Source: Neobacillus sp. WH10
GTDB lineage: Bacteria > Bacillota > Bacilli > Bacillales > Cytobacillaceae
NCBI RefSeq assembly: GCF_030123405.1
Contig: NZ_CP126110.1
Span: 4,905,125-4,937,124, forward strand
DNA length: 32,000 nucleotides
Direction of reading: 5' to 3'
Of the stretch, positions 3,670-16,452 are shown one piece after another. How positions within the stretch are numbered: position 1 is the first letter of the stretch; each line of letters starts with the position of its first letter. A program made the translations under genes and the position numbers. Below the pieces are notes generated by a model that worked only from the letters and a program-made list of their open reading frames with translations, ran no database searches and was not told where the DNA came from.

Positions 3670-5423
3670 TCTTGACCTTCCTTTTGAAGCGGAAGTAAAG
3701 CTAATCCATTATTGATTAGGCGTTGAAGCTCTTTTGTTTTGCTGAGGTTGAGCAATTCTTGATGCACTTGTTCTGTTTCCATCGTTTGCACACCATGTCC
3801 ACAGAACAACTCCAGAATTTCCATACGCAACAGCCATTCCTTTGGAAAAGAGCTTCTCAAATCTTGCAGAACTGTTTGGACAGTAACCATACTATTTTCA
3901 TCCAGTGACTCTTTTTCACGAACTTCTCTAATTGTTTGGTACAGATTTTCTAATTCTGTTAACCGTCTTGGTGCTATTGATTCTTTTTTAGGTATTTCTT
4001 CTACACCGAAGAAGGCTTCTGCATCTGCAGCTCCTGGAAAAGCAGAAGTAACGGCTGATCCTACCGCCATGTCGAATACTCCCCAAGTCTCCTCAAATAA
4101 CATTTGATCTCCTAATGTGACTATACAGTTTTCGAAGGAAATAAGATTTATTTTGTTCTTGTTTCGGATAATATTTGTAACAATTCCCGTTACTTGAATG
4201 CCGCTCTTGAATGTCAAAGTCGCTTTTCGTCCTTTTTCTATTCCTAAAGCCAGAAGTTGTTCCTTGTTACATTCTTCAAGAGAAATGTCCTCTTCTAATA
4301 AACCAATTGGCGTTCCAAAACCATCACAATGAATTGCTTTCGAATGTCCAGGAAGCTCCTTATCATTAATAGCCAAGGCTGTTGGTCCTGCTGTTTTCAC
4401 ATAAATGGCCTCGCCATCTGGATCTTTAAGCGTTTTTTCGATCGTTCCTGTAATTTGTATTCCCGAGTTCAATACAAATGTCGACGTACTGCCTGATTGG
4501 AGTGCCTTATCTAAGCTCTCAGTTCCACCTTTTCGAAAGGCCATTGATTGGGAAAACTCTTCGATAGCCTCTATCAATTGATCAAAGCTCTCGCAAACAA
4601 ATAATTGCGGCTGCATGGTCGTTACATCGTAGCTTGTCTGAATACAAGACTCTACCGAAAAAGGAAGTTTTACTACTTCTTTAGACAAGCAATGCTTGCT
4701 TTCTCCTACAGAAGATAACAGACCTGCACCATATATTTGAGGGTTTTCCAACGTACCTATTAGTCCGTACTCCACTGTCCACCAGAAAATTCGCGAGATT
4801 TGTTCTGCTTCTGACATACCTGTTACCGCTTTTTGCTTTTCGCTTAGTAACCGTTTTGCTTCTTCAATTTGTTGTGGAGTGGAATTGCGGGCCTCCATTA
4901 CGATTGAAAGATGTCTTACGGCTTCAAATACTTCATGTTCTGCTCTTGTTGCAAACGCCTTTACGCCAATTTCTCCAAATCGTTTTACATATGAAGCATA
5001 TTGAGAATCAAAAATGATCGGTGCATGTCCTGCGGCTTCGTGGATTATATCCGGTGCCGGTGTATATTCAATGTTTTCAACTTTTCGAATATCCACAGCA
5101 ATTGGCAAAATACCATGAGCTTGAAAATCAAAAAAAGCAACACCCGGAATTAAGCCATCTACAATTGCAGCTCCCCAGCCAATTTTTGCAAGACGTTCAT
5201 TCATATCTGATACATTTGGAATTGCCTCTATGTCAATCCCCGATGCCCGGAGACCTTCCACATACGCCGGATGAGCAGTATCCTTTAGGACATGATGATT
5301 TTGTCTCATAACATATCGCCATACCGCATGATCGATTGGTGTGTACTGTTCGTAATGCTGCTCTGAGACAAATTGTCTCAAATGAACTGGAATCTGTTTT
5401 ATAGGTTTCAATAATTGGTTCAT
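3663..5423 (-). CDS. phhA: phenylalanine 4-monooxygenase (biopterin-dependent aromatic amino acid hydroxylase), long form with a roughly 290-aa C-terminal extension
   Basis: N-terminal ~295 aa carry the iron-ligand motifs PDIIHEAAGHAPI and FWWTVEYGL. Adjacent and coupled to phhB. Confidence 0.8.
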   Translation of the reverse strand: MNQLLKPIKQIPVHLRQFVSEQHYEQYTPIDHAVWRYVMRQNHHVLKDTAHPAYVEGLRASGIDIEAIPNVSDMNERLAKIGWGAAIVDGLIPGVAFFDFQAHGILPIAVDIRKVENIEYTPAPDIIHEAAGHAPIIFDSQYASYVKRFGEIGVKAFATRAEHEVFEAVRHLSIVMEARNSTPQQIEEAKRLLSEKQKAVTGMSEAEQISRIFWWTVEYGLIGTLENPQIYGAGLLSSVGESKHCLSKEVVKLPFSVESCIQTSYDVTTMQPQLFVCESFDQLIEAIEEFSQSMAFRKGGTESLDKALQSGSTSTFVLNSGIQITGTIEKTLKDPDGEAIYVKTAGPTALAINDKELPGHSKAIHCDGFGTPIGLLEEDISLEECNKEQLLALGIEKGRKATLTFKSGIQVTGIVTNIIRNKNKINLISFENCIVTLGDQMLFEETWGVFDMAVGSAVTSAFPGAADAEAFFGVEEIPKKESIAPRRLTELENLYQTIREVREKESLDENSMVTVQTVLQDLRSSFPKEWLLRMEILELFCGHGVQTMETEQVHQELLNLSKTKELQRLINNGLALLPLQKEGQEC

Positions 5424-5512
5424 ACTAGATTCAATCCTTTCTTTTCAATTTTTTTGAATTCTCTTAACATGGTAATCGAATTCTACATTCCATCTTTGCT
5501 TTCCTCCTTTTC

Positions 5513-5604
5513 ATAAAGAAAACTTGTCGACTGGCGAGCCGTTAGGCGAAGACAGAGGCGTAGTTGCACTTATGCCTGATAGGAAAGTTAAACTTTCCTA
5601 CGGC
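5513..5604 (-). repeat. dispersed ~92-nt structured element, copy 1 (in the phhA 5' UTR)
   Basis: About 85% identical to 11527-11620 in the same orientation. Contains hairpins ggcgtag...ttatgcc and taggaaagtt..aactttccta. Confidence 0.7.
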
Positions 5605-5882
5605 TAAAAAAAACCCTACTGGAAAACCAGTAGGGACGAATAGACTTCGTGGTACCACCCTAGTTGCGAGCTTTCGCTCACCACTTCATTCTAATAACGA
5701 CTTTGCTGCCGTCTTTCCCTTCATAAAGAACTCCTGCCTTTACTACGAAAAAGAAACTCCAGGTGTGTAATTCATGCTTACGTTTGTACTGATTCACACC
5801 AACCATCAGCTCTCTGTAGACAAAATGCTAAGCACTACTGTATTCCCTTCCACGCTTGTATCCTATGAAATTTTTAAAAACC
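5605..5882 (-). promoter_or_regulatory. T-box leader, unit A (proximal to phhA)
   Basis: Minus strand shows AGTA/GAA specifier-loop elements, the ACAGAGAGC AG-bulge, the GGTTGGTGCAA distal loop, the T-box AGGGTGGTACCACG, and the terminator ccctactgg-tttt-ccagtaggg followed by a U-run. Confidence 0.8.
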
Positions 5883-6161
5883 AAATAAAAAGGCCCTACT
5901 GGAAAACCAGTAGGGCCGAATAGACTTCGCGGTACCACCCTAGTTGTGAGCATACACTCACCACTTCATTCTAATAACGACTTTGCTGCCGTCTTTCCCT
6001 TCATAAAGAACTGCTGCCTTTACTACGAAAAAGAAACTCCGGGAGTGTAATTCATGCTTACGTTTGTACTAATTCGCACCAACCATCAGCTCTCTGTAGA
6101 CAAAATGCTAAGCACTACTGTATTCCCTTCCATGCTTGTATCCTATGAAATTTTTAAAAAC
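5883..6161 (-). promoter_or_regulatory. T-box leader, unit B
   Basis: Same architecture as unit A, with T-box AGGGTGGTACCGCG and terminator ggccctactgg/ccagtagggcc followed by a U-run. About 94% identical to unit A by eye. Confidence 0.85.
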
Positions 6162-6441
6162 AAATAAAAAGTCCCTACTGGAAAAACCAGTAGGGACGAA
6201 TAGACTTCGCGGTACCACCCTAGTTGCGAGCATACGCTCACCACTTCATTCTGATAACGGCTTTGTTGCCGTCTTCCCCTTCATAAAGGCTGCTGCCTTT
6301 ACTACGAAAAAGAAACTCCGGGAGTGTAATTCATGCTTACGTTTGTACTGATTTGCACCAACCATCAGCTCTCTGTAGACAAAATGCTAAGCACTACTAA
6401 ATTCCGTTCAACGCTCTATAATATATAACATTTTTTTAGTA
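6162..6441 (-). promoter_or_regulatory. T-box leader, unit C (first transcribed)
   Basis: Same architecture. T-box motif at 6208-6221. Terminator gtccctactgg/ccagtagggac; the flanking pair covaries with unit B (GT..AC versus GG..CC). Confidence 0.85.
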
Positions 6442-6447
6442 TAACGA

Positions 6448-6477
6448 ATTATAAATGGAGATTAAATAAATTGTCAA
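6448..6477 (-). promoter_or_regulatory. sigma-A-type promoter for the T-box array and phhAB
   Basis: Minus strand reads TTGACA (6477-6472), an 18-nt spacer, then TATAAT (6453-6448), just upstream of unit C. Confidence 0.65.
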
Positions 6478-6542
6478 GGATTAAATATTAATAGATATAT
6501 AATCCTTCATAGGCTTTTGAATTTTATAATTCCCTTTGACAC

Positions 6543-6839
6543 CTAAATATGTTGTAATTTATCCGGGTTCCGTACAAAGTAAAGGTTGCCGATTGCATTT
6601 TTCTCTACATGTATATGCAATACGGTCTCTATCACGCCATCCTTCCGAACCACCAACCCAGTTTGGCCGTTTAGAGGTGTCAGCTCGATTTGAACGTTTT
6701 CTCCGAGATTGGATACCTGATTGAACAGCCCAAGCAGGAATCTAGCCACACGTTCAGGTGTTTGGATTGGATGAGTTGCAGCAGACGTTTTACCACCGCC
6801 GTCCGAAATCAGGACAACGTCTTCAACAATTAAAGCCAC
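6543..6839 (-). pseudogene. remnant of an ECF41-type (SigJ-like) sigma factor: C-terminal extension only
   Basis: The 98-aa ORF carries the DGGGK and NPDKL motifs of the ECF41 C-terminal domain but has no sigma-2 or sigma-4 regions. The upstream frame is closed by a stop, and the AraC gene ends at 6965. Confidence 0.55.
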
Positions 6840-6964: not shown

Positions 6965-8209
6965 CTATGTTTGATCAGAGGAATGATCATTTCTAAACTG
7001 TCTTGGGGTTAAACCTGTGTATTTTTTAAAGATTTTTATAAAATAACTTTGATCGTTAAAATTTAGCCACGTGCTGATGTCTGAAATCGGATAATTTGTT
7101 ATAACTAACAGCTTTTTTGCTTCGTCTACTCGTTGCCGTTGTATATATTCACTTATTGGTATACCAACTTCTTTTTTAAAAAGGGATGATAAGTAATTGG
7201 GACTTAAACGACACATTTCTGCAAGGTGATCAAGTGTGATGTCTCCATAAAGATGGTTATAAATATAATGTTGACAAGCGGTTATCGCTGCAGAATATTT
7301 TCCTACATTTAATTGGTGTACACGATTGGTAAAATCACTAATGGCTTCTTCCGTTAATTTCAATATTGCTTTTAGGTTTCCTAAATCCTCGAGTTGTTGA
7401 ATATAAAAATCACTTAATGTAAAGGCCGTTTCCTCATTTAAGCCACCTTCAATGGCAGCTCTGCAAACAAGGGCAATTCCAGTTATCATTAAATTTTTTT
7501 CACTTCTTAAGCGGTTCCGTTTCGACAATAATCCTAATTCTGCTTCACCGACAATTGAGTAGTCGAAGATATCCTTTAATTTATCTATACGTCCATTTTT
7601 GACATAATCAAGCAAAACCCGTTCATATGAAAGATTGGAATGGAAAATGAAATCCCTTCTCCCTTTTGAAAGCTCAAGATCCAGATTCTCTGATTCAATT
7701 ATGACGAGGTCTAACGCTTTGTTATTTTGTATGACAAACGTTTTATCTAACGTTTTATGATAAATCAAATAATAAACCATTAAACTAATCGTTAGGAGTT
7801 GTTGACGATCAATAATGGGGATAGATTGATAGTATTCAATAAGATTCCTTTTATTGACGTTTCCTTTAAAAGCATCCATGATCTTAGTAATATTTTCATC
7901 AGATATTTCTGACTCAAGGGAAGGTCCTACAATAATGGTGCCTAAAAAGTGATTTGTTTTTTTTAGATTAACAAAGAAAAAGTTCAAATTTGAATTTGAA
8001 AAGAAGATAGGAAAATCATTTGGATCCTCTTCATAGGTATAAACACTTATCTGCTCCTTGAACAGGTGATAATATGGATTTCTCCGTAGGTCACTTCTTG
8101 AAAATTCGTATTCGAACTCACCAAATTGATTGACATAATAAACGGGTATTTGATGAACTTCAGAAATAAGCTGACAAATATATTGTAAATCTTCCTTGGA
8201 TATTTCCAT
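6965..8209 (-). CDS. AraC family transcriptional regulator
   Basis: 414 aa. C-terminal dual HTH (ITLDHLAEMCRLSPNYLSSLFKKEVG...DISTWLNFNDQSYFIKIFKKYTGLTPRQFR). The N-terminal domain is not recognisable. Confidence 0.8.
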   Translation of the reverse strand: MEISKEDLQYICQLISEVHQIPVYYVNQFGEFEYEFSRSDLRRNPYYHLFKEQISVYTYEEDPNDFPIFFSNSNLNFFFVNLKKTNHFLGTIIVGPSLESEISDENITKIMDAFKGNVNKRNLIEYYQSIPIIDRQQLLTISLMVYYLIYHKTLDKTFVIQNNKALDLVIIESENLDLELSKGRRDFIFHSNLSYERVLLDYVKNGRIDKLKDIFDYSIVGEAELGLLSKRNRLRSEKNLMITGIALVCRAAIEGGLNEETAFTLSDFYIQQLEDLGNLKAILKLTEEAISDFTNRVHQLNVGKYSAAITACQHYIYNHLYGDITLDHLAEMCRLSPNYLSSLFKKEVGIPISEYIQRQRVDEAKKLLVITNYPISDISTWLNFNDQSYFIKIFKKYTGLTPRQFRNDHSSDQT

Positions 8210-9123: not shown

Positions 9124-9378
9124 GCTTAAGAAACAACAAGCAGGGGTCAAACATTCTTATGATAGTATAAATGGTAAAGAAGGTGCTTTCCATGATAAAT
9201 ATCCGGTTTAAAATATATATTAGAGAACTTAGCTCCGCACAAATGTATACGATGAAGCATTGTACGGAGCTTAATCGGGAAGCATCAAGTTTCCTATATT
9301 CATCGGCTTATAGTTGCTAAAAAGTGTAGTGCTGCTATGCTTTTTTGCGTATGACTATTTGCCGAAGGATAATTGATT

Positions 9379-9419: not shown

Positions 9420-9489
9420 GGATATTTCAATGAGTTTTCTCGGAATTGAAATAATATTTGTTGTATTCTTTCTATGCAGCAAAACCACT

Positions 9490-9546
9490 AAAGCAAAGAG
9501 CTAGCGTCTTTTGTGACACTGTCTCTTTGCTTTTTTTATTTTTTAG
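9490..9546 (+). terminator. terminator/attenuator hairpin immediately upstream of the ABC-F RBS
   Basis: aaagcaaagag (9490-9500) pairs with ctctttgcttt (9523-9533), followed by tttttttatttttt. It ends 17 nt before the ATG at 9563. Confidence 0.65.
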
Positions 9547-9562
9547 GAAAAGAGGAAAAAAG

Positions 9563-11098
9563 ATGAGTTTACTTGAAGTCAGAAATTTAACACACAGATT
9601 TATAGACAAACCCCTATATGATAAAGCAAGTTTCGATTTATACAAAGGTGAACATATGGGAATCGTAGGACAAAATGGCGCTGGAAAAAGTACACTTATA
9701 AAAATATTGATGGGAGAAATCATTCCCGATAACGGAATGATTAAATGGAAAAGGGATATTAGGATTGGACATCTCGATCAATATGCCGAAATCAATGGAA
9801 CCAAAACAATTATTGACTATTTGAATACAGCATTTGCCAATTTATTTGAACTCGAAAAAAAACTGAATGATCTCTATCAAGAAATGGTGATTACAGGTAA
9901 TTACGATCTGATGGAGCAAGCGGCAAAATACCAGGAGAAGCTTGAAACGAGTGATTTTTATTTAATAGAAAGTCACATCGATAAAGTGGTTTATGGCTTA
10001 GGGATTAATGCAATTGGCATCGAGTGCCCCATTCAGGAGTTAAGCGGCGGCCAAAGAGCGAAAGTTATACTAGCAAAGCTATTGCTTGAAAAGCCCCATG
10101 TACTATTGTTAGATGAACCAACGAATTTTCTAGATAAGGAACATGTAGACTGGCTTGCAAACTATTTAACCGTATTCGATGGCGCTTATATCGTTGTATC
10201 CCATGATTTTGATTTTTTAGAGAAAATATCTTCTTGTATATGTGATATCGAGCTTGGCACCATCAAAAAGTATACGGGGAAATACTCGGATTTTCTGCGT
10301 CAAAAAGAGCATTTGCGAGAAGATTACACTCGACAATACGTCGCTCAACAAAAAAAGATAGAAAAAACGGAAGAATTTATTCGAAAGAATATTGCTGGAG
10401 TTAATAGCAAGATGGCTCAAGGTCGTCGGAAGCAGCTTGAAAGAATGGAACGAATGGCTCCACCAGTTTTCACTCATAAACCTGCCTTTAGTTTTAAGGA
10501 AATCTCACTTTCCGCACAGATGGCTCTACGTGTAAATGACCTTGAGGTTGGTTATGGTAAACCCCTTTTGCCTAAATTGAATTTTACTGTTTCAGGCGGG
10601 CAAAAACTTGTGATTACAGGTTTTAATGGAATTGGAAAGTCCACATTACTAAAAACACTCGTTCAACGTATATCAATTGTCGCAGGTAGTTTCCAGTTTG
10701 CGGAATCCGTAAAGATTGGTTATTTCGAACAAAATTTAACATGGGAAGATAAGGCAAAAACACCTCTCAAAATTATCTCAGATTTTTATCCTAAATTGGG
10801 CGTTAAGGAGATTCGTAGTCGTTTGGCTCAATGTGGGCTGAAGAATGCTCATACTTCACAAGCAATTGGGACATTAAGTGGCGGAGAACAGTCAAAGGTA
10901 AAATTATGCCTGCTCCTTCTTTCATCTTGCAATTTTCTAGTCTTGGATGAACCAACCAATCATTTAGATGCAGAAACAAAAGAAGCTTTACAAAAAGCAT
11001 TAATTCAGTTTAAAGGCAGTGTATTACTTGTTTCTCATGAAGAAAAGTTTTATCAAACGTGGGCGGATCGCTATCTAAATATAGAGGATTGCATTTAA
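9563..11098 (+). CDS. ABC-F family ATPase (two nucleotide-binding domains, no membrane domain)
   Basis: Two Walker A motifs (GQNGAGKST, GFNGIGKST), two signatures (LSGGQ, LSGGE) and a basic interdomain linker (QQKKIEKTEEFIRKN...RRKQLERMERM). Start moved to the ATG at 9563 after AGGAAAAGAGG, because the track's 9458 start would read through a terminator. Confidence 0.85.
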   Translation: MSLLEVRNLTHRFIDKPLYDKASFDLYKGEHMGIVGQNGAGKSTLIKILMGEIIPDNGMIKWKRDIRIGHLDQYAEINGTKTIIDYLNTAFANLFELEKKLNDLYQEMVITGNYDLMEQAAKYQEKLETSDFYLIESHIDKVVYGLGINAIGIECPIQELSGGQRAKVILAKLLLEKPHVLLLDEPTNFLDKEHVDWLANYLTVFDGAYIVVSHDFDFLEKISSCICDIELGTIKKYTGKYSDFLRQKEHLREDYTRQYVAQQKKIEKTEEFIRKNIAGVNSKMAQGRRKQLERMERMAPPVFTHKPAFSFKEISLSAQMALRVNDLEVGYGKPLLPKLNFTVSGGQKLVITGFNGIGKSTLLKTLVQRISIVAGSFQFAESVKIGYFEQNLTWEDKAKTPLKIISDFYPKLGVKEIRSRLAQCGLKNAHTSQAIGTLSGGEQSKVKLCLLLLSSCNFLVLDEPTNHLDAETKEALQKALIQFKGSVLLVSHEEKFYQTWADRYLNIEDCI

Positions 11099-12410: not shown

Positions 12411-13241
12411 TCAAAGAAAAGGATTATAGAACCGATCGCCATCATGAAATGTGACATAAAGCGAGACTAATAGTATGAGAGCGAAAAGGATGATAGTGAA
12501 TACATCTATTTTTTGAAATGGGCGTGCCCGGTACCAAGAACGCTTTTTGTTTTTTCCAAACCCTCGGAGCTCCATTGCATTGCTAATGATTTCAATTTTA
12601 TCGAGACTTGATAAGATGAGCGGGATGATGATCGATGCAGCATTCTTTATCCGCTTCGGCAGCTTTTCTTTGCGCGACATATCAATCCCACGGGCTTGCT
12701 GGGAAAGCGAGATATTACGAAAATCTCGTTGAATGTCGGGAATATAGCGTAATGCAAGTGCAACAGCATAAGAAATTCGGTAGCTGACACCGATTCGGTT
12801 TAATGATGCGGCAAATTCACTGGGATTTGTCGTCACAATAAATAGAATCGCCGCCGGAATGACGGTGAAATATTTAAGTGTAACATTCATTTGATAAAAC
12901 AGCTGCTCTAGCGTGATCGAATAGCGCCCGCCGATTTCAAACAGCACATGGCTTGTCCCATAGATTTTTACCCCTTCTTGCGGCGAAAATACATAGATTG
13001 CAAGATTATTAATCATCAAAAACAATAAGATAAATAGGAGGACAAAGGCCACTTCCTTTAGTTTCACCTTGGAAACGATAAAGACGCCGATACTAAATAG
13101 GAAGAGGAAGACTAAAACTCGCGTATCATAGGTAAGCATCGCAATCGATGACCAGATGATGAAGCAAATCAGCTTGGTTACACCTGTCAGCTGATGGACC
13201 GGCGATTGCCGCTCTATGTATGAAAGCATTTCTACTGCCAT
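12411..13241 (-). CDS. ECF transporter transmembrane (T) component
   Basis: 276 aa, multi-pass. EcfT-type coupling motifs (LSQQARGIDM, AMELRGFG). Its start overlaps the ATPase stop by 10 nt. Confidence 0.8.
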   Translation of the reverse strand: MAVEMLSYIERQSPVHQLTGVTKLICFIIWSSIAMLTYDTRVLVFLFLFSIGVFIVSKVKLKEVAFVLLFILLFLMINNLAIYVFSPQEGVKIYGTSHVLFEIGGRYSITLEQLFYQMNVTLKYFTVIPAAILFIVTTNPSEFAASLNRIGVSYRISYAVALALRYIPDIQRDFRNISLSQQARGIDMSRKEKLPKRIKNAASIIIPLILSSLDKIEIISNAMELRGFGKNKKRSWYRARPFQKIDVFTIILFALILLVSLYVTFHDGDRFYNPFL

Positions 13242-14944
13242 TTCTGTCTCACCTCACGATCATAGGCGATAAACCTCTCGACAAACTGCTTTGGATCGCT
13301 AATTCCCGCCCGGTTTGCCAATTCAAATAAGGATGTTTCCTTTAAATTTGCCTCTTCAATAATTGTAGAATCCGCCAGTACATTGACAGCTGAGTCATCG
13401 GCTATTTTTCTTCCGCCTGCAATCACAATCGCCCGCGGCGTATATTCAAGCATGAGATGCATATCATGGGTAATCATGATGATTGTAACACCTTGGCTGT
13501 TGAGTTCCACCAAAAATTCCATGATCTCGGTATAATGGCGGAAATCCTGCCCTGCGGTAGGCTCGTCAAGTATGATTATCTCTGGCTCCAATACTAAGAT
13601 GGAGGCGATGGTTACCCGCTTTTTCTGGCCAAAGCTTAACGCCGAAATCGGCCAGTTACGGAATGGATACAATCCGCAAATTTTCAATGTCTTCATAACG
13701 CGCTCTTTTATCTCGGCTTCCGGTACACCAAGGATGACCAGACCAAGCGCCACTTCATCATAGATCATCTGCTTCGAAATCATCTGATTCGGGTTTTGCA
13801 TTACCATGCCGATCCTTGATGCCCTCTCTTTAATCGTATCTTCGGTAATATCCTGCCCGCGATAATAAATTCTTCCCGAGCTAGGATTTTCAAAGCCGCA
13901 AATTAATTTGGACAGTGTCGACTTTCCAGCACCATTTTTTCCAACAATACTAACCATTTCACCTTTTTCAATCGAAAAAGAAACACCGTGAATCGTTCTT
14001 TTTCCTGGTGTATAGCCAAAATTAATTTCCTTTAATTCCAAAACAGATTCTGTTTTCTCTCTAGGCTGCGGGCTATCCACTTTTGTAAACCAGTCCACTA
14101 ACTGACCTTTGCAGCTTTCAACTTGAAAGGAATCGAGATGAGCGGGCTTCATTTCTGGCGTAATATCACAGGCGGCATATTTCGCTGCTTTCACATATAA
14201 GGGCTCGCGGATGGAACATTGCTCCAAGACGGGGGAAGCTAAAAGTTCATCCGGAGTCATGTCACCGATAATCCTGCCATCATCAACGACAATGATGCGG
14301 TCAACAGGGCAATGCAATACATCCTCTAAGCGGTGCTCGATAATCACGACCGTTTTGTTTGTTTCTTGTTGGATCCTATCAATGAGTTCAATTGCATATT
14401 TTCCTGTTGCCGGATCAAGATTGGCCAGTGGTTCATCAAATAATAGAATCTCCACATCATCGACCATTACCCCAGCAAGAGATACCCTTTGCTTTTGTCC
14501 TCCGGAAAGATGGTGCAGCGAGGAGTCCAAATAATCCTCCATTTCCACCATTTTCGATACCTCGGCCACCTTATCAAACATTTGTGTTTGTGGTGTACAA
14601 TCATTTTCGAGCGCAAAAGCGATATCCTCAGCAACCGTAAGCCCAATAAATTGCCCATCAGGATCTTGGAGAACCGTTCCGACTTTTTTCGATAAGGAAA
14701 AAATGTCTAAATCCTTAGCGTCCTCGCCGCAGATTTTCAAACTTCCTGATACTTCCCCTTTGTAAGAAAAGGGAACAAGGCCATTGAGACAATGGCCAAG
14801 TGTGCTTTTTCCAGATCCAGATGGACCAACAATGAGAATCTTTTCCCCTTCATAGATCGTTAAGTTTATCTCATGTAATGTTGGTGCCGTCTGACTGCGA
14901 TATTGAAAGCTATAGTTTTCAAATTGTATAACCGGTTTTTTCAT
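13232..14944 (-). CDS. ECF transporter fused double ATPase (A-A' components)
   Basis: 570 aa with two sets of Walker A (GPSGSGKST, GKNGAGKST), signature-like motifs (LSGGQKQR, LSFGQKKR) and Walker B. The architecture resembles YkoD-type dedicated ECF ATPases. Confidence 0.85.
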   Translation of the reverse strand: MKKPVIQFENYSFQYRSQTAPTLHEINLTIYEGEKILIVGPSGSGKSTLGHCLNGLVPFSYKGEVSGSLKICGEDAKDLDIFSLSKKVGTVLQDPDGQFIGLTVAEDIAFALENDCTPQTQMFDKVAEVSKMVEMEDYLDSSLHHLSGGQKQRVSLAGVMVDDVEILLFDEPLANLDPATGKYAIELIDRIQQETNKTVVIIEHRLEDVLHCPVDRIIVVDDGRIIGDMTPDELLASPVLEQCSIREPLYVKAAKYAACDITPEMKPAHLDSFQVESCKGQLVDWFTKVDSPQPREKTESVLELKEINFGYTPGKRTIHGVSFSIEKGEMVSIVGKNGAGKSTLSKLICGFENPSSGRIYYRGQDITEDTIKERASRIGMVMQNPNQMISKQMIYDEVALGLVILGVPEAEIKERVMKTLKICGLYPFRNWPISALSFGQKKRVTIASILVLEPEIIILDEPTAGQDFRHYTEIMEFLVELNSQGVTIIMITHDMHLMLEYTPRAIVIAGGRKIADDSAVNVLADSTIIEEANLKETSLFELANRAGISDPKQFVERFIAYDREVRQKWQ

Positions 14945-15002: not shown

Positions 15003-15560
15003 TTAAACATCCTTAGTTAGACTGCCGCTTTGACTGCGGCTTTTTGCATAGATACTAAGCAACAGCGTACCAAGGACAGCAACAGTTACCATGTTTAACC
15101 CGCCGGCAACCACGCCTTGTAAATAAACCTTATTTGCTGGTTCGGCATAAATAAGAACATCGAGGGTCGGAGCAATCGCGAACCAGCCGATCGCTTGGAC
15201 AACGATTTGAACCACGTTAAACAGAATGATTTTTTTCGTATTAAAAATGCCTGATTCAATATTGATTTTCTTCGCTGCAAGGCCAATTAAGAAGCCGACG
15301 ATTCCAGAAACGATGACCCAGCTCCACCACGGAGTTCCGTAGAAGATGGCATCCTTTAAGGCGTGGCCGATTAACCCAATCAACCCACCGGCAACCGGTC
15401 CGAAAACAATTGCCATTAACGCTAAAAAGCCGTACGATGTGTCAAAATTCGTATTTGGTACTCCTGTTGGAATAACGGCGAATCTGCCTAAAATCACGAA
15501 TACGGCTGCGCCAATCCCAATTGCCACGATCGTTTTGATTGATAACTGTTTTCCTTTCAT
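15003..15560 (-). CDS. ECF transporter substrate-specific (S) component, UPF0397-like
   Basis: [43 protein letters not shown]...[17 protein letters not shown]...[20 protein letters not shown] resembles the UPF0397 S-component family as I remember it. The track's start at 15710 is rejected because it overlaps the upstream gene; the ATG at 15560 (or 15590) is preferred. Confidence 0.7.
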
Positions 15561-15594
15561 TTCCTCAACCCCCAAAAAGATCTTTTTCATAAAG

Positions 15595-16452
15595 TTAATT
15601 GTAAACAATTTTCGGCAATTTGCGTATAGAAATTTTCCATGATGCCCCTGTTTCAATATGATATGCCTTTGCAAAAGAACCCTGGTTAATCGCAACGCCA
15701 ATTTTATCAAGCGAATTCACATATAGCAATGGCTCACCTAAATGAATATCAGCAAATGTTCGGCCATACGTCATAATGTTTTTATAGACTTGGCGGGTAT
15801 CATTTTCTATCGTCACTTCAAAGGAATCACCATATTCCACTGATAAATTTTTGAAGAGTACACGGTCAATATTTGTCCATAAATTACCGAACCGAATATC
15901 AAGTATGTCAATATTGCCAGTGAGCACATGATTGGTAATACTCGGCTCCTCCTTGGGAAGTTCGATGATGGAATCAACCGGCACTTCTGGACCCACTTGT
16001 TCAAACGTAATTAAATTGGAAGCGAGTCTTGCCCCGGTATATGCATAGACATCACGACCATGGAACGTATAGGATTCACCAGAACACGGCAAGCGATTGA
16101 CGTCCTCATCAATGATTCTTACTTCTTTAATGCCAATACAATTTTTAATATGGGTGAGCGTACCATTGTCCGGAGTAATAATATACTGATCCAAAGCCGT
16201 TTTCGCGACAACACTTCTCCGCTCAGAACCGACACCTGGGTCAACAACCGAAACAAACACCGTTCCTTCGGGCCAATAGGAAACCGTCTGATATAATCGG
16301 TAGGAGCCTTCCCAAATATGATACTGGGGAATGTCATGGGTTAAATCAAATACACGGATGGCTGGATTCACGGAAATAGCCACACCATACATAGCGCTTA
16401 CAGCACCGTCACTTGTACCAAAATCAGTTTGTAACACGAGATGATTATTCAT
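15595..16452 (-). CDS. DUF62 / SAM hydroxide adenosyltransferase family protein (SAM hydrolase, related to chlorinase/fluorinase)
   Basis: [20 protein letters not shown]...[20 protein letters not shown]...[12 protein letters not shown] are hallmark blocks of this family. Strong AAGGAGG RBS. Confidence 0.8.

Follow-up and report, generated by a model that had tools for sequence, protein, structure and literature searches.

In Neobacillus sp. WH10 the operon phhA-phhB, which encodes a phenylalanine 4-hydroxylase and a pterin-4a-carbinolamine dehydratase, lies behind a leader of about 1 kb that starts at one promoter and contains three T-box riboswitches in a row. Each of them has its own terminator, and all three display the tyrosine codon UAC as their specifier. 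Very probably, the three units terminate independently and gate the operon in series, each responding to tRNA-Tyr. The stretch of DNA analysed, here called the window, comprises 32,000 nucleotides (nt) of contig NZ_CP126110.1 (positions 4,905,125 to 4,937,124 of the forward strand). Coordinates given below are those of the window.

The whole window was scanned against Rfam with cmscan. Three full-length matches to the T-box family RF00230 were obtained on the minus strand, with scores of 133-141 bits and E-values of 1e-30 to 1e-32; the gathering score of the family is 93 bits. The promoter, the three units, their terminators and the two genes are arranged as follows:

6477-6448, minus strand: single sigma-70-type promoter for the whole leader, TTGACA-18-TATAAT, 12 of 12 consensus positions
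6420-6189, minus strand: T-box unit 1, from stem I to the antiterminator; RF00230, 141.2 bits, E 9e-32, model positions 1-219
6197-6171, minus strand: terminator of unit 1, then a U-run; 11-base-pair stem, -21.6 kcal/mol, z-score -8.1
6141-5909, minus strand: T-box unit 2; RF00230, 133.5 bits, model positions 1-219
5917-5892, minus strand: terminator of unit 2, then a U-run; 11-base-pair stem with 8 G-C pairs, -23.8 kcal/mol
5861-5629, minus strand: T-box unit 3; RF00230, 135.3 bits, model positions 1-219
5635-5614 (stem) and 5613-5606 (run of eight U), minus strand: terminator of unit 3; 9-base-pair stem, -16.4 kcal/mol
5423-3663, minus strand: phhA, long-form phenylalanine 4-hydroxylase, 586 amino acids, Pfam Biopterin_H
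3669-3352, minus strand: phhB, pterin-4a-carbinolamine dehydratase, 105 amino acids, Pfam Pterin_4a (E 1.6e-24)

The minus strand across 5300-6700 holds no second promoter-like site, and the TTGACA-18-TATAAT promoter is likewise conserved in three loci of the comparison set described below (L062, L063 and L066). The repeat is regular. Tandem Repeats Finder reports a period of 280 with 2.9 copies and 93% matches at 5607-6415; the units of the window are 89-93% identical in pairs, and their MAFFT alignment has a mean column identity of 94%. A first-pass annotation of this DNA, made from its letters, had already proposed three T-boxes of about 280 nt in series on one minus-strand transcript, with one promoter, a terminator and U-run for each unit and a phhA-phhB operon downstream. 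It is borne out in all these respects; its positions for UAC are exact, and its choice of tyrosine agrees with the alignment discussed below.

All three units contain the stem I elements GAAUUACA, CAGAGAGC and GGUUGGUGC. The specifier loop shows the order GAA, one base, codon, purine, and it is accompanied by the distal AGAGA and UGGUG T-loop elements, by which stem I docks the tRNA elbow. The conserved T-box sequence AGGGUGGUACC(G/A)CG is also present in the units of the window. Each terminator hairpin shares CGUCCCUAC with its own antiterminator, so that the two folds are mutually exclusive. The antiterminators of units 1 and 3 have the canonical 7-nt UGGUACC bulge in the predicted fold, and that of unit 2 is displaced by one pair. 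The terminator of unit 3 is the weakest of the three, and this unit has an A-U pair in place of G.U. In view of the differences that units 2 and 3 show in antiterminator and terminator, the three units may not be equivalent.

Differences between the units had been read in the first-pass annotation as compensated within their stems. For the terminator this reading stands: its flanks are GU..AC in unit 1 and GG..CC in unit 2, a true double change from U-A to G-C. For stem III it does not stand, since the two differences (C-G to U.G and U.G to U-A) are each one-sided and wobble-compatible. In the alignment of phhA-leader T-boxes, compensatory changes are seen at 15 of the 50 predicted pairs.

The identity of the downstream genes is clear. 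The phhA protein matches NCBIfam NF010657 ('aromatic amino acid hydroxylase') with 833 bits and, over its full length, PDB 7vgm ('Phenylalanine-4-hydroxylase', E 7.5e-231). The phhB protein reaches 83.3 bits with NF002017, the 4a-hydroxytetrahydrobiopterin dehydratase equivalog, for which the cut-off is 80; its start overlaps the end of phhA by 7 nt. Phenylalanine hydroxylase and pterin dehydratase together convert phenylalanine to tyrosine. The closest genome match of the phhA protein is that of Neobacillus drentensis (96% identity); identity is about 85% in another group of Neobacillus species and 79% in Hazenella coriacea.

Distribution and age of the array

The leader was compared with 58 orthologous or paralogous loci of species-representative genomes (loci are numbered with a prefixed L), to which more were added by exact-protein look-ups and by one metagenome pattern scan. 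T-boxes were counted in each locus by Rfam scans and motif searches:

Three complete T-boxes: L001, L005, L006 and L007 (four Neobacillus species), L014 (Hazenella coriacea) and L072 (a metagenome contig close to N. drentensis)
Two T-boxes: L003, L013, L062, L063 and L073
One T-box: L066; Rossellomorea, Cytobacillus and related genera
No T-box: many paralogous hydroxylases

Triple and double arrays are thus found in related genomes, and the copy number at orthologous loci is 3, 2 or 1, as the first-pass annotation had anticipated when it supposed that the number might vary. In L002 the array contains a run of N, and the contigs L065, L067, L068 and L069 stop inside it.

From the high identity of the units it had further been concluded that they arose by recent tandem amplification. 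This idea had to be rejected. The triple array recurs in four more Neobacillus species and in Hazenella despite the divergence of phhA, and the units are 87-97% identical between genomes, on a par with units inside one genome. A neutral benchmark is provided by the four-fold degenerate sites of phhA, which are 61-68% identical between the window and the group with about 85% protein identity; for the T-box units of these genomes the identity is 87-94% when whole units are compared and 92-98% within a core of 224 columns. Insertions of 90-200 nt sit in the spacers and never within a unit (in the window, in L005 between units 2 and 3, in L002/L062 and in L003). The gap between 87-97% for the units and 61-68% for the four-fold sites, the restriction of insertions to spacers and the compensated terminator pair indicate that the similarity of the units reflects purifying selection on every one of them, perhaps with some gene conversion, and not youth.

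A neighbour-joining tree of whole units clusters them by array position. A bootstrapped tree on the 224 core columns supports grouping neither by position nor by genome (0-2%); position-diagnostic columns are absent from this core, and the positional signal is confined to the first ~23 nt and the 3' tails of the units. For this reason no date of the triplication is read from the core. Only against the close relative L072 is orthology by position clear: units at the same position differ from those of the window by 12, 15 and 24 nt, and units at other positions by 21-34. The three units of Hazenella cluster together with 94-99% core identity, which suggests gene conversion or re-duplication.

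Several observations may be added here. The spacer insertions in L005 (3440-3620), L062 (2200-2400) and L003 (3720-3900) are GC-rich, about 190-200 nt long and similar in kind to miniature inverted-repeat transposable elements; they differ from the insertion in the window. In Rossellomorea sp. FM04394 (L008:8726-9204) and Bacillus sp. CH30_1T (L011:9249-9727), the minus strand carries double T-boxes of 97-105 bits each, at a distance of about 3 kb downstream of phhA. Hazenella coriacea (L014), a member of the Thermoactinomycetaceae, carries the whole cassette of three T-boxes, micro-open reading frame (micro-ORF, see below), phhA and phhB. Its hydroxylase is 79% identical to the Neobacillus version, whereas other Bacillaceae hydroxylases reach only 50-65%, which suggests that the gene was transferred horizontally along with its triple leader.

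It might be argued that only one or two of the units still switch, the rest being redundant duplicates that contribute no more than leaky terminators, or being on their way to loss by recombination. The two-unit arrays of close relatives would fit such a view (L013 has the array of L072 minus its middle unit; L063, L062 and L003 also have two), and so would a mismatch in the antiterminator of unit 2 in the window. We nevertheless consider it improbable. All units score 133-141 bits over the full model and have an intact T-box sequence, specifier and terminator, and each position is conserved far beyond the neutral benchmark in at least five genomes. A decaying copy, moreover, should be removed quickly, because an intact terminator combined with a dead antiterminator would silence the operon.

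The copy number itself could be doubted. If the third copy were an assembly artefact, or if the two-copy relatives were collapsed assemblies, the variation would not be biological. Assemblers evidently struggle with this repeat, as the run of N in L002 and the contigs ending within the array (L065, L067, L068, L069) indicate. The array of L013, from N. drentensis JJ1435, would be consistent with a real deletion by recombination as well as with an assembler that skipped one repeat, and some of the two-copy cases could be assembly collapses. An artefactual extra copy, however, would equal its neighbour, and the units of the window differ from each other at 24-36 positions. Each of them is nearest to the same-position unit of L072, and three distinct units are found in six independent assemblies, evidence that does not clear the two-copy assemblies. 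An artefact is a very improbable explanation.

Specifier and mode of action

UAC occupies 6328-6326 in unit 1, 6049-6047 in unit 2 and 5769-5767 in unit 3, each time within GAAUUACAC. The alignment to the covariance model puts UAC at the codon positions, in the pattern GAA-N-NNN-purine. Conservation was assessed on an alignment of 29 T-boxes that belong to phhA leaders of 14 loci, and every one of them has UAC with a purine after it. The overlapping triplets behave differently: UUA is replaced by AUA in Hazenella, CAC by CAG, CGU or CGG in other loci, and ACA by ACG, also a threonine codon, in the single-copy genera. A further T-box of the window serves as an internal reference:

16882-16607, minus strand: fourth T-box of the window, 111 bits, with AUG (Met) at the model positions that hold UAC in the leader

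This T-box precedes a gene for a S-adenosylmethionine (SAM) hydroxide adenosyltransferase of the SAM hydrolase family, followed by an energy-coupling factor (ECF) transporter. A methionine codon in a methionine context supports the frame in which UAC is read. That the units sense another tRNA via UUA (Leu), ACA (Thr) or CAC (His) is hardly credible, even though GAAUUACAC holds all four triplets and the change from ACA to ACG keeps threonine, because the covariance model places UAC with its 3' purine at the codon positions, AUG takes the same place in the methionine-context T-box, UUA and CAC are not conserved and the regulated enzyme makes tyrosine.

With tyrosine as the specifier, the sequence of events may be envisaged as follows. 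The anticodon GUA of tRNA-Tyr would pair with UAC, and its free 3' end with the UGGU bulge, which pairs with an A73 discriminator. RNA polymerase would get to phhA-phhB only after uncharged tRNA-Tyr has stabilised each of the three antiterminators in turn. Total readthrough would then approximate the product of three separate decisions. Very low basal expression would be expected, together with a response to tyrosine starvation that is steeper and has a higher threshold than that of a single T-box. As a mere illustration, if the readthrough of one unit were 5% in the basal and 70% in the induced state, its range would be 14-fold; with three of them in series the range would be about 2,700-fold, with an up to third-order dependence at low signal. 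We infer tRNA binding and the multiplicative response, and also a physiological logic: phhAB would be a reserve, an emergency source of tyrosine that is kept off until tyrosine charging fails badly, because the enzyme spends phenylalanine and reduced pterin in making tyrosine.

Some points weigh against this picture. Three units are not obligatory: the two-unit loci listed above do with two, and L066 has one unit ahead of a 78%-identical hydroxylase. Unit 2 of the window begins its antiterminator helix A2 with a G.G mismatch, and its terminator is the strongest of the three; readthrough of this unit may for these reasons be poor. The threonine frame (ACA/ACG) is ruled out by loop position and gene context, not by conservation. 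Finally, the anticodon GUA and the discriminator A73 of the cognate tRNA-Tyr are assumed from general knowledge: the window contains no tRNA genes, and the 60 fetched loci contain no tRNA-Tyr genes.

Two kinds of T-boxes outside the array deserve mention. Short ones that lack stem II are found in L015 (3756-3944), L032 (3772-3954), L045 (3759-3937) and L047 (3762-3939). They score 67-83 bits, which is under the Rfam gathering score, also have GAAUUACAC as specifier loop, and front paralogous hydroxylase genes whose products are about 51-54% identical to the hydroxylase of the window. The fourth T-box of the window, in turn, is followed by genes at 15595-16452, 15003-15710, 13232-14944 and 12411-13241, which in this order encode the SAM hydroxide adenosyltransferase, an ECF S-component, a duplicated ATPase and a T component of the CbiQ type. 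These genes look like an operon that is induced by methionine starvation and serves the salvage of SAM to methionine as well as uptake.

The micro-ORF and the spacer ahead of phhA

Between the last terminator and phhA the leader contains three further elements:

5605-5515, minus strand: window-specific insertion of about 90 nt, from the U-run of unit 3 to the ribosome-binding site of the micro-ORF; missing in the closest relatives, L013, L065, L072 and L073
5507-5464, minus strand: micro-ORF MECRIRLPC, with GGAGG at 5507-5503, ATG at 5493-5491 and TAA at 5466-5464
5463-5424, minus strand: spacer from the micro-ORF to phhA, with a second GAATTC at 5461-5456 and a weak phhA ribosome-binding site

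The micro-ORF has nine codons in the window and a strong Shine-Dalgarno site. Its general form is M-x-x-R-I-R-(L/F)-P-(x)-stop, with 8-9 codons, and it is found, besides the window, in 15 fetched loci (L001-L007, L013, L014, L062, L065, L067/68, L069, L072 and L073), all of which retain the Shine-Dalgarno site, the ATG and the stop. Positions 2, 3 and 9 are variable; the core R-I-R-(L/F)-P is invariant. In Hazenella the stop is TAG instead of TAA and the frame is intact. Within the core, four of the five substitution types are synonymous (AGA/CGA, CGA/CGT, CCT/CCA, CCT/CCC), where about 29% would be expected (binomial p ~0.03), but the adjoining non-coding spacer is equally conserved (88%). 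The micro-ORF is missing from L063 and L066, both of which also lack phhB, and from the single-T-box genera. There was no sign of it before other genes: a metagenome pattern scan gave 16 matches, 2 of them genuine, and both of these were drentensis-like phhA leaders. It is found only in the phhA leader of this type and is previously unreported.

The 40-nt spacer has a mean identity of 88% in nine Neobacillus-type loci, as compared to 61-68% at the four-fold sites of phhA. Its invariant GAATTC (5461-5456) follows a first one (5483-5478) by 22 nt. Between the two sites, L006 and L069 have a 9-nt duplication. The consensus fold amounts to no more than an invariant 6-base-pair GAAUUC/GAAUUC stem of -5.5 kcal/mol, which shows no covariation, and the fold of the single sequence is no better than those of shuffled sequences (z = +0.6). 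Neither consensus nor single-sequence folding revealed an expression platform for a stalled ribosome, be it a hairpin, a terminator or a masked ribosome-binding site. Pairing of the micro-ORF with the ribosome-binding site of phhA was considered and discarded: it is weak by hand, missing in RNAalifold, and the fold does not exceed shuffles. An Rfam scan of 5380-5640 with permissive E-values yielded terminator-like noise only and no known RNA family.

Candidate roles can be named for the micro-ORF: it may be a mini-ORF that loads ribosomes or stabilises the mRNA, a sensor that acts through its nascent peptide, or a site to which a protein binds. Its conservation makes it a candidate second regulatory layer. 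Micro-ORF and spacer might together form a translational checkpoint, nascent-peptide or protein-bound, that senses another signal such as the availability of phenylalanine, tyrosine or pterin. We consider this improbable. If true, phhAB would be made only when tRNA-Tyr has been found uncharged three times and a second condition is satisfied, and a T-box array would be coupled to a new kind of leader-peptide sensor.

As to the insertion of about 90 nt, other copies were found neither in the window nor in the fetched loci. A conserved palindromic element with the consensus GCGCTTAAAAGCGTTTAAGCGC occupies the place of the Neobacillus micro-ORF in single-T-box genera (L008, L009, L010, L012, L016, L019, L023, L025 and L058); it is situated some 60-90 nt before phhA, past the T-box terminator and ahead of the ribosome-binding site of phhA.

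Elsewhere in the window, on the plus strand at 9223-9270, a uup RNA motif (RF03060, 65.6 bits) precedes an open reading frame at 9458-11098 (plus strand) that encodes an ABC-F type ATPase (ABC_tran and ABC_tran_Xtn), a known association of this motif. The motif is also present in L001 at 8075-8124.

Relation to known systems

Adjacent T-boxes had been called rare but known in the first-pass annotation, and this is correct: thrZ and trpE in bacilli are preceded by two or three of them (PMC2494555). T-box regulation of the phenylalanine-4-hydroxylase of the B. cereus group was described by Wels et al. in 2008 (PMC2494555). A survey of contiguous riboswitches of 2025 lists triple T-boxes as 13% of the contiguous cases at thrS and 1% at trp operons, and also finds them at ilvB and at an amino-acid ABC transporter; in its main text neither tyrosine nor the hydroxylase is mentioned (PMC12452182). 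In the interpretation given there, contiguous T-boxes require an uncharged tRNA for every unit (PMC12452182). How tandem T-boxes act is listed among the open questions in a review of 2020 (PMC7583486).

Both adjacent T-boxes and T-box control of this hydroxylase have thus already been published, and the window is an expected variation on a well-understood regulation. The triple array at phhAB would be a new gene target, conserved in a small clade, though earlier comparative surveys might already list it. It extends the genes under triple T-box control to a salvage-type source of tyrosine. The orthologous leaders, with one, two or three near-identical tyrosine T-boxes before the same operon, form a natural copy-number series, which suits a test of the long-standing assumption that in a series of complete riboswitches the decisions multiply and the response becomes sharper.

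The enzyme encoded by thrZ serves as a back-up and is made only when starvation is severe, a logic that would match the one proposed for phhAB. We know of no upstream ORF behind the arrays of thrZ or thrS. These leaders resemble that of the window in having two or three adjacent complete T-boxes with their own terminators before one gene (PMC2494555). They differ in specifier and target: threonine and an aminoacyl-tRNA synthetase there, tyrosine and a biosynthetic enzyme in the window. The tandem T-boxes of trp operons share with the window the serial gating of an aromatic amino-acid biosynthetic operon, but have a tryptophan specifier and are nearly all double, triple ones making up 1% of the contiguous cases (PMC12452182).

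The hydroxylase of the B. cereus group belongs to the same long-form family and has a downstream Pterin_4a gene. The one locus of this group that was fetched (L059) has, however, a single partial T-box of 46 bits, no array and no upstream ORF of the RIRLP type. At L059:2100-2340 (CP113365.1) a 3' remnant only is left, consisting of stem II/III, the T-box sequence and the terminator, with stem I apparently missing; it adjoins an inverted-repeat element (CCCTCACC...GGTGAGGG).

For the micro-ORF, the ErmDL leader peptide (MTHSMRLR...) offers a parallel: it too is encoded by a short upstream ORF that has a strong ribosome-binding site, and its R6-L7-R8 recalls R-I-R-(L/F)-P (PMC8298421). Stalling at ErmDL depends on the presence of a macrolide or ketolide in the exit tunnel, and it takes effect via a downstream hairpin (PMC8298421). 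Behind the micro-ORF no hairpin or expression platform is detectable, and the regulated gene is unrelated to antibiotics. The likeness is for these reasons a resemblance only.

The tandem glycine riboswitch, finally, also repeats its sensor domains for one ligand and thereby obtains a sharper response. Its two aptamers, which cooperate structurally, are served by a single expression platform. The array of the window, in contrast, consists of three complete and independent units, each a sensor with its own terminator, and its logic would be pseudo-cooperative (PMC12452182).

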